45,926 nucleotides of DNA from a virus: UHGV virus genome UHGV-0253013. One strand, 5' to 3'. The position numbers were made by a program, and so were the translations under genes. Below, piece by piece: positions 23,506 through 37,952 of the stretch. The notes under the pieces are model-generated. The model saw only the letters and a program-made list of their open reading frames with translations, was not told where the DNA came from and did not search any database. Numbering within the stretch: the first letter of the stretch is position 1; the number at the start of each line of letters is the position of its first letter.

Positions 23506-23587
23506 AGTCAGTATGTCCCCTGGACGTTTGAATCCGGGCCACCCGGATTTACATGTCAAGAATAAATTATTCCAACATGCAAGGCAA

Positions 23588-23851
23588 CTATTCCAGAATA
23601 TTCCTCACGTAATCCTGCAACATGAACACTTTCAGTCTCAGTTGCCGTACACATTCGGCATTCTGAACGTCGATAGCTAAATCCTCGTCAGCGTCACTAC
23701 TTGGCGGTGCCAGTTTGCACGGAGGCTGCATCATCGTCGTATCCGGGGATGGAATTGGCGTTTGCGACGGCGCGGGACTTGAGCAGGACGCGAGCATCGT
23801 CGAAAGTGCACACGCTGCGACCAGGCGTTTTAATGTACTTAACGACTTCAC
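23588..23851 (-). CDS. o-spanin (outer-membrane lipoprotein, Rz1-like)
   Basis: Signal peptide with lipobox LASC, Pro-rich mature region; starts inside the i-spanin gene in another frame and extends past its stop. Confidence 0.55.
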   Translation of the reverse strand: MKSLSTLKRLVAACALSTMLASCSSPAPSQTPIPSPDTTMMQPPCKLAPPSSDADEDLAIDVQNAECVRQLRLKVFMLQDYVRNILE

Positions 23852-24083
23852 GGGTAATCACCTCTGATTTCGTCTTGCCTTCGTTGTCAGCGGCGGCGGC
23901 CTTCGATTCATCCTGCTGCTGCCGTTGTGTTTTCTTCACTAACTCAGCCTGTGCTTTCTGCTGTTGCTGCGAAACTAGATTCGCCCGGCCTTCGTTCCAG
24001 CCGCTGCGATACTGGTATATGCCGTGGGCGTAAGCCAGGATGGTGAAACATGCCCACGCTACGAAAGTTGCTTTAAGATTCAT
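23697..24083 (-). CDS. i-spanin (Rz-like)
   Basis: N-terminal TM segment ATFVAWACFTILAYAHGIY followed by a Gln/Lys-rich coiled coil. Confidence 0.6.
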   Translation of the reverse strand: MNLKATFVAWACFTILAYAHGIYQYRSGWNEGRANLVSQQQQKAQAELVKKTQRQQQDESKAAAADNEGKTKSEVITREVVKYIKTPGRSVCTFDDARVLLKSRAVANANSIPGYDDDAASVQTGTAK

Positions 24084-24307
24084 GTTTCCCCTTTCTCGAT
24101 AAGTAAAGCCCCGCCATAAAGCGGGGCGCTAGTCCTTATCATTTAAACATAGAAACGGCGTAATCTCAGTAAACCAGTTACTTTTTACACAAGCAATAGA
24201 CTATGGCCCTTCCGAACGCGTCAGCGTAACTACACTCAGGACTTACGTCCCGCTCCGTTACCTGCCCGCGCCGCGGTCGCTTGTTCATACTTCACAAGCT
24301 CAGGTGG

Positions 24308-24350
24308 AGCTTAGCACATTTTTAGTGAAAAGTCAACTATTCGAATAGTT
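24308..24350 (-). promoter_or_regulatory. candidate promoter (TTGACT-N17-TAAGCT, minus strand) with a perfect 16-bp palindrome over the -35
   Basis: Plus-strand AACTATTCGAATAGTT (24335-24350) is a perfect palindrome of GAATAGTT half-sites; reverse complement gives TTGACT, 17 nt, TAAGCT. Confidence 0.35.
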
Positions 24351-24398
24351 TATTCCAACATTTACAATTGAGCGGAATAACTGGAATAATCACAGACA

Positions 24399-24424
24399 TT
24401 AAAAAAGCCCCTTTCGGGGCCTCT
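24399..24424 (-). terminator. rho-independent terminator after the Ig-like gene
   Basis: Minus-strand GCCCCGAAAGGGGC hairpin followed by TTTTTT; just below the stop at 24427. Confidence 0.6.
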
Positions 24425-24426
24425 TA

Positions 24427-24888
24427 TCATTCTGGCTTAGTGACCTTCGCCGCTTTACTCACAGCCTCCACTCCACCGGCATCGGTGACTTTAACAAAGT
24501 ATTCACCTACCGCATTATCCATCAGAGACAAAGCCTCTTCGGGTGCGTTTACTACTTCCTTCCCGTCTTTGTACCAGGTCAGCGTATATGGTGCTTTACC
24601 AGCCTTAACTTCGACAGTGATAGTTGCGCTGCCGTCAGTGAGTTCAGTGTCTTTCGGTTGCACAGAGAAATACACATCGCCTGCGTCCGCCAGATACGGA
24701 ATTTCATAAAGCATGCCCGCCACCGGTAGCGCAATACCGGTTTTATCTGCAAACGGCATATCGTCTACTGGTGTACCGAGTACACTCTCATCTTCAATAA
24801 ACACCACGTTCTCGCCAGAGCCAGACACGCGGGCGTACTGGACTACGCGACGCGACGGTACATCAGTAACTTTGAAAAAGCCCATCAT
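24427..24888 (-). CDS. Ig-like domain protein (paralog of 21215..21556)
   Basis: C-terminal KAPYTLTWYKDGKEVVNA...GEYFVKV shares the APY..WYKD Ig-like signature. Confidence 0.5.
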   Translation of the reverse strand: MMGFFKVTDVPSRRVVQYARVSGSGENVVFIEDESVLGTPVDDMPFADKTGIALPVAGMLYEIPYLADAGDVYFSVQPKDTELTDGSATITVEVKAGKAPYTLTWYKDGKEVVNAPEEALSLMDNAVGEYFVKVTDAGGVEAVSKAAKVTKPE

Positions 24889-26194: not shown

Positions 26195-26659
26195 ATGATG
26201 TACTTTGTGTACATAGGCGCGATATGCGCCGCCAACTTTTCGGTATCCGTTTTCGGTCCGTGGGCAACTCCTATAAACGCTTTTGTTCTTATCGGTCTTG
26301 ATTTTGTGATAAGAGATAAGTTGCATGAAAGAATCGGTGTGCGAAAAATATTTATACTCATAGTTGTTGCGGGGGTAATAAGTTACGCCATTAACCCTGC
26401 AACGGGTAAGATTGCCTCTGCAAGTGTGGTGGCATTCGCATTTGCTGCGTTGGTAGACGCGATTGTGTACCAGTTGCTTATTAACCAAAAGTGGCTAGTA
26501 AAGTCTAACGTCAGTAACACAGCGGCATCCGCTGTTGATTCGTTTATTTTTCCTTTAATCGCCTTTGGGGCTTTCATGCCGCTTGTAGTTCTCGGGCAAT
26601 TCGCCGCTAAAGTTATCGGGGGCGCTACCTGGTCACTCCTGTTGAGGAAAGTTAAATGA
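26195..26659 (+). CDS. yhhQ: YhhQ-like membrane protein (7-deazaguanine precursor transporter family), short form
   Basis: Multi-TM protein; segments KSNVSNTAASAVDSFIFPLIAFG and ASVVAFAFAALVDAIVYQLL resemble remembered E. coli YhhQ motifs (no alignment run); adjacent to a DpdA-like gene. Confidence 0.55.
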   Translation: MMYFVYIGAICAANFSVSVFGPWATPINAFVLIGLDFVIRDKLHERIGVRKIFILIVVAGVISYAINPATGKIASASVVAFAFAALVDAIVYQLLINQKWLVKSNVSNTAASAVDSFIFPLIAFGAFMPLVVLGQFAAKVIGGATWSLLLRKVK

Positions 26660-27390
26660 CAGTACACTACCACGGCGGCCCTATTTGGGGTGGGGGTGAA
26701 CTTATAAAAGCGTTGTACAGAGGGGGAGGTGCTCTGGTGTCCTATGCGCGTCCAGACCAGATACGAAAGATAGCCGCCATGAGATGTAAATTAGTACTGG
26801 ATAACGGTGCTTTTTCAACGTGGAAGAAAGCCCCGGAAAACATAGACTGGAGTGCACACTGGGCAGGATATTATGATTTTGTTGGTGAGTGGTTCAGCCG
26901 TATTGAGTGGTTCATAATACCTGACGTTATCGAAGGTTCCGAGGAGGAAAACGACGCGTTAATAGAAACTGTGCCGGATTGGTTAATGCCCAAGGCTGTC
27001 CCGGTGTGGCATAGTGACGAGAGTATAAGAAGACTGATAAAACTATGCAGGAAGTTCCCTCGAGTTGCTATAGGCTGCTGCGGCCCACACAGGGCTATAC
27101 GTTCTAAGTCGTGGGAAAAAAGAATGGATCAGGCGTTTAATGCGGTTTACAGAAACCGGAAACTAGATGTAAAACTACACGGACTTAGAATGCTGGATGG
27201 AAGGGCGTTAAGCCGCTACCCTTTTGATAGCGCAGACAGCACAAACGTAGCTATAAATGTACCAAAAACGAAGGCAAGACTGCCTAACATAACCGATAAA
27301 CTACACCGCACAGCTATAATGCGGCACACGATAGAAATGGTGAAACCACCCTCGGTTGGTGAATGGTTATTTAAAACTAAGGCCCCATAA
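26656..27390 (+). CDS. dpdA: DpdA-like transglycosylase (candidate 7-deazaguanine DNA-modifying enzyme)
   Basis: 244 aa, translationally coupled to the YhhQ-like gene. Call rests on a remembered resemblance to short phage DpdA/TGT-like proteins (YHGGPIWGG, LVLDNGAFS, FIIPDVIEGSEEEND) and on context. Confidence 0.5.
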   Translation: MTVHYHGGPIWGGGELIKALYRGGGALVSYARPDQIRKIAAMRCKLVLDNGAFSTWKKAPENIDWSAHWAGYYDFVGEWFSRIEWFIIPDVIEGSEEENDALIETVPDWLMPKAVPVWHSDESIRRLIKLCRKFPRVAIGCCGPHRAIRSKSWEKRMDQAFNAVYRNRKLDVKLHGLRMLDGRALSRYPFDSADSTNVAINVPKTKARLPNITDKLHRTAIMRHTIEMVKPPSVGEWLFKTKAP

Positions 27391-27406
27391 CGGGGCCTTT
27401 TTCTTT
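27379..27406. terminator. bidirectional terminator between the DpdA-like and portal genes
   Basis: AAGGCCCC-ATAA-CGGGGCCTT hairpin followed by TTTCTTT; both convergent stops lie in or beside it. Confidence 0.55.
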
Positions 27407-36706: not shown

Positions 36707-36892
36707 TCACACCTCCGGCGGCTCAGGTAACGGCATCCAGTGCGTTATATCACCGTGATATAAACTCTTTGCAGGCCCCCAGTAGCCATCTGAATTAACA
36801 CGCATAACCTCACAGCCAACAAAACAATCAGTTACAAGAACGTATTCATAAGGCTCCGGCATCCGCTCACTACACTTAATCCACTCACCCAT
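36707..36892 (-). CDS. DUF551-like protein
   Basis: C-terminal HWMPLPEPP and N-terminal WIKCSERMPE match the DUF551 small phage protein pattern. Confidence 0.5.
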   Translation of the reverse strand: MGEWIKCSERMPEPYEYVLVTDCFVGCEVMRVNSDGYWGPAKSLYHGDITHWMPLPEPPEV

Positions 36893-37042
36893 AAATCACC
36901 TCTGATTAGCGATAAACAACACACCAGCTTTCCACGCCCGCCACGCGAGACGCGTCTTAACGTTCAGGTACTCTTTCTTTGAACCCTTGTAAACCGGCAG
37001 ACCCTCGACGACGGCCCAACGTTCGAATGCTTCTCTCATAAC

Positions 37043-37540: not shown

Positions 37541-37565
37541 TCCTCTGTCTCATTTCGATAAGTGA

Positions 37566-37594
37566 ATAGTACCCTATTATATTGGGGTGTGCAA
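37566..37594 (-). promoter_or_regulatory. sigma70-like promoter, class A (TTGCAC-N17-TACTAT, minus strand)
   Basis: Minus-strand read CTTGCACACCCCAATATAATAGGGTACTATTCACTTA, matching the 15203 copy over about 35 nt. Confidence 0.55.
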
Positions 37595-37821
37595 GAGAAT
37601 AGTTACGTTGCCGTTGTGATTCTTCGGGGAAGGTTGTGCCTTTATTCTTATTACTTGGTAACTAAAGGGCAGGCCTTAAGCCTGCCCAATAATCGTTACA
37701 TTTTTACGGTTGCGAATCTACGGCACATTAAGAAACAGTAGATATTTCAGCGGGTTACTTCTTTAAATGAGATTTAGATACACTTATCCTTAAACCCCAA
37801 GGCAAGCATCTCAGCTGTCTG

Positions 37822-37862
37822 GGAGGGGTTGACGAATCCCTCGGGGAGGGTTCGTCAACTCC
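37822..37862. repeat. imperfect inverted repeat centred on TTGACGAA / TTCGTCAA in the divergent control region
   Basis: GGAGGGGTTGACGAATCCCTC followed directly by GGGGAGGGTTCGTCAACTCC; arms pair over about 17 bp with small bulges. Confidence 0.5.
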
Positions 37863-37952
37863 GTAATATATACAAGTCCCAAAACCATTATACAAACATG
37901 TGTCAAGAACTTTCAATAACATTTTTGTAAAGATTAAATATTACAGAGATTG

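Follow-up and report, generated by a model that had tools for sequence, protein, structure and literature searches.

We analysed the 343-base gap at positions 24084-24426 of the virus genome UHGV-0253013, a stretch of 45,926 nucleotides (nt) referred to here as the window, and found that this gap very probably holds a real structured RNA, which is likely transcribed from a promoter at 24336-24308. The window comes from a Kagunavirus (Guernseyvirinae), a K1G-like siphovirus of E. coli, whose structural genes lie on the minus strand. The upstream neighbour of the gap is an Ig-like/Hoc-like head decoration gene (24427-24888, minus strand), and its downstream neighbour is the i-spanin gene (23697-24083, minus strand), which overlaps the o-spanin gene (23588-23851, minus strand); the scaffold gene and then the major capsid gene follow the spanins. 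In minus-strand order the gap presents a terminator, TATTCC/GGAATA repeats, the promoter, an RNA of about 200 nt (about 24300-24100, minus strand) and the i-spanin ribosome-binding site. The RNA is composed of two hairpins, P1 and P2, conserved single-stranded blocks and a 3′ hairpin.

Comparison with related phages, carried out on their sequences, establishes the predicted structure, its strand, the conservation of the promoter, the non-coding nature of the gap and the presence of a paralogous copy. The predicted RNA is absent from Rfam, and its fold is kept across the phage subfamily by compensatory mutations. We give an even chance to the gap being a transcription-restart and leader module, i.e. 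a cis-acting leader with its own promoter that would most likely promote read-through, and the RNA probably controls the downstream lysis, capsid and tail genes.

Structure and conservation of the RNA

From about 24300 the minus-strand sequence is G+C-rich and folds into P1 and then P2. P1 (24279-24299, minus strand) is a 5′-terminal hairpin, GCUUGU/ACAAGC, with a 9-nt loop, and is supported by covariation; it is replaced by ACGCU-UUC-AGCGU in the type-C alleles of Jerseyvirus and lengthened to 8 base pairs (bp) in the Kagunavirus-like contig L026. P2 (24212-24276, minus strand), also supported by covariation, is a long, irregular hairpin built of about 24 pairs that stack in three segments, with conserved internal loops (GGA / GUA type) and a variable apical loop. 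Its tip reads GGGAC-GUAA-GUCC in the window, GUGC-GUAA-GCAC in L026 and either GGGCGU-CACA-ACGCCC or GGGCGC-CACA-GCGCCC in type C. RNA structure prediction, which a preliminary description of the gap had proposed as a check, yielded P1 and a three-segment P2 in all single-sequence folds (10 alleles), beyond the features that it had listed.

A covariance model of 122 positions and 30 pairs, named R1, was built from 16 sequences. It detected all alleles in the loci of 57 relatives and gave one match in the window and zero matches in seven unrelated G+C-rich control loci. Pairs were counted in 36 distinct sequences, on alignments that were fitted to R1 and hence lean towards the model: 97.7% of the cells are paired, compared to 28-39% when the partners are slid by 1-3 columns, and 15 of the 30 pairs are changed on both sides. 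The observed values were reached by 0 of 500 shuffles. In helix 1 (P1) 99.5% of the cells are paired and 4 of the 6 pairs are changed on both sides, while helices 2 and 3 (P2) are paired at 96.9% and 98.0%, with 11 pairs changed on both sides. In the same way, a second, metagenome-derived sequence set gives the same pairing picture. The plain MAFFT alignment alone shows a CG/UA/AU exchange at the base of P2, and RNAalifold on plain MAFFT alignments recovers the outer helices only; the inner helices are missed there because insertions and deletions misalign them, and a model-based alignment, with its bias, is therefore needed. The fold also contains several conserved G-U pairs, where the other strand would have C-A mismatches, which assigns it to the minus-strand transcript, the direction in which the promoter points. 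Additionally, the unpaired and internal-loop nucleotides of P1 and P2 are strongly conserved.

A 1.45-kb query around the gap matched 232 phage records, most of them with 90-95% identity. Of the 181 phage records that hold the gap, Salmonella phages included, 179 have it at 95% identity or more; the DNA of the flanking genes is 80-95% identical, and the spanin protein shows about 61% identity in distant relatives. Along the gap, mean pairwise identity is 0.94-0.99; the spanin gene has 0.81-0.96 and the scaffold gene 0.69-0.96, with most values at 0.7-0.9, and some Salmonella phages carry a gap that is 95-97% identical beside a spanin gene at 73-79%. Judged by these identities, the conservation of the gap, unlike the palindrome or the repeat described below, exceeds chance. 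More divergent alleles are those of L026, whose gap is 84% identical to that of the window, and the type-C alleles, for which only a 61-nt BLAST match to the window gap is obtained. The RNA allele moves in a mosaic block with the neighbouring head genes; within the block that Salmonella phage LSPA1 shares, no part is conserved better than the gap. A partner gene was looked for by comparing one type-A with one type-C Jerseyvirus (n = 2), and this pair showed general mosaicism only, with the RNA linked to its neighbours.

Outside the subfamily, scans of viral, genome and metagenome sequences with patterns and R1 gave only Guernseyvirinae-like contigs of about 41-45 kb, the wide scans relying on exact degenerate patterns that distant relatives could escape. 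Two genome-bin matches are short contigs (6.2 kb and 0.7 kb), taken as phage-derived, and the remaining pattern matches are chance ones in G+C-rich bacteria. No host homologue of the gap DNA was found in 5,426 complete E. coli genomes. The literature on transcription or non-coding RNA in Kagunavirus, Jerseyvirus and Guernseyvirinae yielded nothing on the gap element.

These data bear on a function at the DNA level, with an incidental fold. The gap would then be an operator-only promoter, a transcript-primed origin, or a recombination or module boundary, and recent horizontal spread, or co-conversion beside mobile genes, would account for its high identity. Such a function would suit the conserved TATTC repeats and boxes on both sides of the RNA-spanin module, the adjoining slot for mobile accessory genes, endonuclease genes included, the travelling of the RNA allele in a mosaic block, and the succession of a G+C-rich transcribed part and an A/T-rich stretch, as in transcript-primed origins. 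We nevertheless hold it to be improbable, since helix-keeping compensatory changes and G-U pairs valid on one strand only are unexpected for a double-stranded DNA site. Moreover, identity is equally high with and without the accessory cassette, conservation stops at the spanin start codon and does not decay with distance from the insertion point, and the divergent alleles, at about 60-70% identity, retain the same fold.

The possibility that the gap encodes a protein of 36 amino acids (aa) was also considered and rejected. The corresponding open reading frame (ORF; 24178-24288, minus strand) is listed in the window and is annotated as a hypothetical protein in several GenBank records, including that of phage Sciku (CPT_Sciku_007). 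Of 57 distinct alleles, just 24 keep it intact; 13 have lost the ATG, and the others are frameshifted or of different length, single-base insertions or deletions giving products from 9 to more than 48 aa. No convincing Shine-Dalgarno sequence precedes it in the window, and the substitutions that it contains track base-pairing, not codon position. We regard such a protein as extremely improbable.

Promoter, palindrome and repeats

The minus-strand sequence 24308-24336 has the elements that define a sigma-70 extended -10 promoter, with predicted activity: a -35 hexamer TTGACT (24336-24331), a 17-nt spacer, TG (24316-24315) and a -10 hexamer TAAGCT (24313-24308), which is directly preceded by TGc (24316-24314). 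All of the 76 distinct upstream sequences compared have T(T/A/C)GA(C/T)T-N17 with TGnTA(A/C)GCT, where n is C, A, G or T. The -35 hexamer is TTGACT, with TAGACT or TAGATT in Jerseyvirus alleles and TCGACT once, and the spacer is of 17 nt throughout; outside the n position and these hexamer variants, variation is confined to parts of the spacer. An extended -10 promoter would be expected to leave n free between the fixed TG and the fixed hexamer, as seen here. The promoter went unlisted in a generic scan because its -10 matches the consensus at 3 of 6 positions only. Transcription would start near 24300-24301, as deduced from the promoter. Between the -10 and this predicted start lies CCACCTG (24301-24307, minus strand), C-rich and nearly invariant in type-A alleles, to which that of the window belongs, and in the second copy described below. 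We take it, as speculation, to resemble the G+C-rich discriminator of stringently controlled rRNA promoters; such a discriminator would, speculatively, tie the promoter to the host growth state.

Upstream of the promoter are two direct TTATTCC repeats (24389-24383 and 24380-24374, minus strand), which are kept in type-A, L026-type and Jerseyvirus type-C alleles. They are followed, 17 nt further, by an inverted repeat GGAATA-AAC-TATTC (24343-24356, minus strand), the centre of which is about 49.5 nt upstream of the predicted start and which type-C alleles keep as TGAATA-CTT-TATTCA. This inverted repeat has the appearance of a subfamily-conserved operator-like box. Exact GGAATA-N3-TATTC matches number two in the window, 24343-24356 and 23560-23573, and both sit in conserved non-coding blocks flanking the RNA-spanin module, an arrangement pointing to a dimeric protein that would bind the DNA there, or to a module boundary.

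The preliminary description had centred on a perfect 16-bp palindrome, AACTATTCGAATAGTT (24335-24350, both strands). The palindrome is present and perfect. It is centred at about -42.5 and overlaps the right half of GGAATA-AAC-TATTC, and its arm does run into the minus-strand promoter, its last two bases being the first two of TTGACT (2-nt overlap with the -35 hexamer). The related motif noted near 23570 is also real: TTATTCCAACAT is found exactly twice, at 23567 and 24350, and the blocks shared around the two copies are longer (17/19 and 12/13 matches). As the key element of the gap, the palindrome did not stand. It is not the conserved unit, and it is kept in nearly all type-A alleles and in no other lineage, being degenerate in the L026-type allele (TATTCTAATGG) and absent both from Jerseyvirus type-C alleles (TTATTCAAAAAG) and from the paralogous copy. 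GGAATA-N3-TATTC and the two TTATTCC direct repeats are conserved more deeply. The window contains 3 perfect 16-bp palindromes, compared to 0.62 ± 0.85 expected; taken alone, a perfect 16-bp palindrome or a repeated 12-mer is unremarkable, and chance could yield the palindrome.

The hairpins reported at both ends of the gap are real (24401-24424 and 24108-24127). The first, given as 24399-24424, was attributed to the gap itself; it belongs instead to the upstream operon as a terminator and lies outside the RNA. This intrinsic terminator (24401-24424, minus strand) has a GCCCC-GAAA-GGGGC stem followed by U6, just past the stop codon of the Hoc-like gene, and folds at -16.0 kcal/mol on the minus strand and more weakly, at -10.1, on the plus strand. 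The homologous site of phage Sciku carries a terminator annotation. By its features it is a strong predicted terminator that closes the terminase-portal-head morphogenesis-Hoc-like operon. As the upstream operon ends at this U6 terminator, the approximately 19 kb of structural genes downstream need a new transcription start. Further same-strand terminator-like hairpins occur downstream at 21736-21715, 17528-17509 and 12316-12297, and the window scan found no strong sigma-70 promoter-like site between them.

The two proposals of the preliminary description for the gap, a regulated internal promoter for spanin and capsid genes or a small RNA locus, both receive support from the comparison, the former from the -35, 17-nt spacer and TGnTA(A/C)GCT kept in all of the 76 distinct sequences, and the latter from the covariation of P1 and P2 and from the lack of conservation of the 36-aa ORF. 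Its overall interpretation is partly supported; the structured RNA and the second copy in relatives had been missed.

The 3′ half, the second copy and possible functions

The segment that follows P2 (24131-24211, minus strand) is A/U-rich and has no predicted structure, and its mean pairwise identity is 0.97-0.98. It contains the conserved blocks GGAAGGGCC (24213-24205, of which the first two bases close P2), CUAUUG (24199-24194), GAGAUUACGCCGU (24167-24155) and AUGUUUA, which are invariant between type A and type C, with no consensus pairs there. The 3′ hairpin (24098-24127, minus strand; stem 24127-24108) has 8 bp, of which 7 are G-C, a tail UUUACUUAUC and a fold energy of -17.9 kcal/mol. 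The terminator scan retains it as a candidate terminator in the window allele (8 pairs, tail TTTACTTATC), and two of its stem pairs are changed on both sides across alleles. The type-C hairpin is without a U-tract (CUUAGCGUAUAAAG) and its tail is CUUAGCG. A usable U-tract follows the hairpin in the type-A allele only, and none is found in type C or in either kind of second copy, so that in those cases the RNA would run into the downstream genes. The ribosome-binding site GAGAAAGGGGAAAC with the i-spanin ATG (24081-24097, minus strand) lies at a conserved distance from the 3′ hairpin, which ends 25 nt upstream of the start codon. This conserved spacing, together with the restriction of the U-tract to type A, speaks for a leader that is part of the spanin mRNA rather than for a small RNA of its own.

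A pattern scan revealed a paralogous second copy (copy 2) of the promoter and P1-P2 in many Kagunavirus genomes. The duplicated unit begins exactly at the -35 hexamer, spans P1, P2, GGAAGGGCC and CUAUUG, and then diverges, with a different end hairpin; the TATTCC repeats and the palindrome lie outside it. Copy 2 is placed between divergent helix-turn-helix / primase-helicase genes and a rightward run of small genes, which in phage Sciku, a carrier of exactly two copies, continues into holins, endolysin and terminase. In two-copy relatives, copy 2 heads the rightward unit and copy 1 comes after an internal terminator. Since the same 5′ domain heads two operons, at more than 100 nt from the start codons, a role in elongation or transcript stability is indicated rather than one in gene-specific translation. 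BLAST and the covariance model found no second copy in the window.

At the place of copy 2 in relatives, the window has an ORF-free promoter-to-terminator unit of about 210 nt (37667-37916, minus strand), with a promoter TTGAAA-N18-TATAAT (11/12 matches) and a terminator GGGCAGGC-TTA-GCCTGCCC then TTTAG. Its 3′ half, kept in 335 phage records, has a homologue in the 3′ part of copy 2 of phage RP180, and its 5′ half is found in 21 records only. As a separate observation, copy 1 of one relative (L003, 2276-2399) has a P2 sequence typical of copy 2, as in L077, a pattern that suggests gene conversion between paralogous copies within a genome.

In the model that we propose, transcription of the upstream head-gene operon would stop at the 24401-24424 terminator, and host RNA polymerase with sigma-70 would restart at the extended -10 promoter, 24336-24308, under a regulator that probably binds the TATTCC/GGAATA repeats upstream of it. 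The first approximately 200 nt of the new transcript would fold into P1, P2, single-stranded blocks and the 3′ hairpin, and would be the cis leader of a spanin-scaffold-capsid-tail mRNA. The likeliest mechanism would be that the RNA lets polymerase pass the adjacent hairpin/terminator and the terminators further downstream, by a put-like action or as the loading site for a factor; stabilisation of the mRNA 5′ end would be an alternative cis role. Action in cis as a leader is slightly favoured in our estimate, and action specifically by antitermination is a less probable, tentative proposal. More tentative again is the proposal that P1-P2 represents a new, promoter-proximal class of processive antitermination RNA, in which E. 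coli or Salmonella polymerase would be made terminator-resistant by the RNA alone or with a small phage protein. The chief rivals of this model are a stand-alone RNA that acts in trans, a sensing attenuator, an element for RNase III processing or for stability, and the DNA-level function weighed above.

The closest comparison is with phage HK022, in which putL and putR, two bulged stem-loops of about 70 nt, occur after the early promoter as two related copies in two operons (PMC9378689). They act in cis on polymerase, at the beta-prime zinc-binding domain, independently of any protein, and suppress terminators kilobases away; putL begins at transcript nucleotide 3 (PMC9378689). The gap element is likewise a phage RNA with two bulged stem-loops directly downstream of a sigma-70 promoter, P1 beginning within a few nt of the predicted start, and it likewise has, in many relatives, two related copies heading two operons, with terminators before the distal genes. 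The two elements differ in that they share no sequence or structure similarity, that the window has a single copy and that the gap element is known from its sequence alone. On the whole HK022 genome with filters off, the best R1 hit was of 12.7 bits (E = 0.11) at 36886-36965, downstream of gene Q. As R1 finds nothing at the put sites, put is an analogue only.

A bipartite antitermination system of Gram-positive conjugative elements is described as processive and as passing multiple terminators in a long operon (PMC8191782). Its setting as described there, a multi-terminator operon of a mobile element, matches the context here, and it differs in being bipartite and in belonging to Gram-positive conjugative elements. 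No Q-like or antiterminator gene is annotated in Sciku, LSPA1 or EnJE1, a statement that covers annotations only, the small proteins having not all been profile-searched.

Late control in phage lambda involves the promoter PR′, a 6S transcript of about 194 nt ending at tR′, and the antiterminator Q. The gap resembles it in its good sigma-70 promoter and in the untranslated RNA of about 200 nt and the terminator-like hairpin that follow, upstream of lysis and then head and tail genes. It differs in that the spanins here are set apart from holin and endolysin, and we know of no covariation-supported structure in the lambda leader. RNase III processing hairpins are present in phage T7 and in the lambda N leader. 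P2, an irregular stem of about 24 bp with internal loops in a phage polycistronic transcript, has the size and shape recognised, and such sites can be paralogous within one genome; the T7 and lambda sites differ from it in being intergenic without their own promoter, and they have no counterpart to the single-stranded blocks after P2.

Several points weigh against a cis-acting read-through leader. The alignment was fitted to the model, so that the percentages of paired cells are inflated, and part of the cross-genus identity reflects recent mosaic exchange, not selection alone. The transcription start, the 3′ end and the timing of expression are predictions. By eye, no conserved boxA-like motif or -10-like pause element was seen in the early transcribed region. 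P1-P2 takes about 90 nt plus the conserved downstream blocks, compared to about 70 nt for put, and R1 gives no match at the HK022 put sites (PL and PR leaders). The 3′ hairpin of the window allele resembles an intrinsic terminator, which a stand-alone RNA of about 200 nt fits equally. Copy 2 is followed by a further promoter-like motif ahead of the first gene, and the early locus appears to be a slot for RNAs in which the 5′ module can be swapped, being copy 2 in some cases and an unrelated hairpin in others.

These last points lead to a stand-alone, moron-like gene for a trans-acting non-coding RNA, which would have host or phage targets or serve as a decoy for a host protein or a defence system, the spanins being expressed via leaky read-through. 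We estimate its chance as a minor one, yet of some weight. The unit in the window does have a promoter plus a terminator-like hairpin with a tail, the conserved unpaired blocks in the A/U-rich 3′ half could be a seed or a protein-binding site, the early locus always holds a promoter-to-hairpin unit of about 200 nt, whatever its interchangeable 5′ module, and the further promoter-like motif stands between copy 2 and the genes. A stand-alone RNA is, however, not easily reconciled with the lack of a conserved, defined 3′ end, the U-tract being missing in type C and after copy 2, nor with the lack of a host homologue in the E. coli genomes searched, and it leaves the conserved spacing to the spanin ribosome-binding site unexplained. 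An Hfq-type trans-acting small RNA was considered in particular and rejected: the tail UUUACUUAUC (CUUAGCG in type C) differs from the long U-run expected of that type, and no convincing complementary target stood out within the window.

The order of promoter, structured leader, terminator-like hairpin and ribosome-binding site is also that of a classical attenuator. P1-P2 would then act as an aptamer for a ligand or a protein and the 3′ hairpin as the terminator platform by which spanin and capsid expression is timed, and the strong conservation of unpaired and internal-loop nucleotides would be in line with it. We consider this improbable. In Rfam 15, no match was obtained at the gathering thresholds for the whole window or for six loci with divergent alleles and copy 2, no family being matched by any allele; at E up to 10, only sub-threshold, chance-level hits appeared, such as wcaG at 17.5 bits (threshold 42) and STnc430 at 16.7 (47). 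A tRNA/tmRNA scan found none. No conserved antiterminator or other alternative pairing with the 3′ hairpin was seen, the one candidate occurring in L039 only. The terminator character of this hairpin is not kept in other alleles, copy 2 places the same 5′ domain before unrelated genes, and aptamers are not usually shaped as one long hairpin.

The Guernseyvirinae (Kagunavirus, Jerseyvirus) are among the most frequently isolated siphoviruses of E. coli and Salmonella and are used in phage therapy, in biocontrol and as small chassis for synthetic biology. To our knowledge they lack a polymerase of their own, and no Q or N protein is known from them. The gap is the most conserved stretch in the head-gene neighbourhood, yet it is unannotated or mis-annotated as a 36-aa hypothetical protein. 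The promoter together with the covariation-supported RNA gives a concrete handle on late-gene control, and genome engineers should regard the gap as unsafe for use as a neutral insertion site. The RNA would join, as a candidate family, the very few RNA elements for which a direct action on the transcribing polymerase may be considered. Were the antitermination class true, it would be the main switch for expressing the long multi-terminator structural operon of the Guernseyvirinae; were it only an mRNA-stabilising leader, it would still be a new RNA family, of modest general interest.

Accessory-gene slots and other features around the module

Most relatives have an insertion of about 200-820 nt at about 24389, which separates the repeats from the Hoc-gene terminator. 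Each insert carries one opposite-strand gene, the kind of which varies (e.g. 2461-2903 of L002, and L025, L004 and L036). It may encode an N6/N4 DNA methyltransferase (242 aa), an endonuclease VII-like protein (179 aa), a 173-aa protein matching clamp-related and RusA-labelled PHROGs, small membrane proteins or small proteins of unknown function. The slot is empty in the window and in K1G. A plus-strand promoter-like site, TTTACA-N18-(TGg)AATAAT (24361-24390, plus strand; 10/12 matches, TG present), faces this slot. As a plus-strand promoter it is doubtful, its -10 end being replaced in the cassette carriers (AATACG, AATAGG, AATATA).

A second conserved non-coding block, R2 (23530-23617, minus strand; 0.94-0.97 identity), lies between the o-spanin stop and the scaffold start. 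It has GGAATA repeats, two in number, which reach as far as the last spanin codons, and contains the exact box GGAATA-ATT-TATTC (23560-23573). Its hairpin (23531-23549) has no U-tract and shows compensatory changes, AUCCGGG/CCCGGAU compared to CACCGGG/CCCGGUG. A TTGACA in R2 is without conservation in Jerseyvirus, and the promoter scan found no promoter-like site in the block. R2 might serve as a regulator site or an RNA element, or mark a module boundary.

A motif TTGCA(C/G)-N7-(T/C)ATAAT-AGG(G/A)TAC is found upstream of the early small genes (about 37565-37600 of the window, minus strand) and also starts accessory cassettes in relatives, e.g. in L014 and L033 upstream of position 2196. Its 7-nt spacing does not fit a sigma-70 -35/-10 pair, and the motif may be a factor-dependent class of phage promoter.

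Finally, the head-morphogenesis and portal genes are separated by an insert of two opposite-strand genes (26195-27390, plus strand), which a bidirectional terminator (27379-27399) closes. One encodes a Vut_1/YhhQ-type transporter (Pfam, 5.8e-09) and the other a queuine tRNA-ribosyltransferase-like (DpdA-like) protein (PHROG 887, 9.5e-84), a pair which, by these matches, suggests 7-deazaguanine-related DNA or tRNA modification in the phage. In phage Sciku the equivalent slot is occupied by a sliding-clamp gene.

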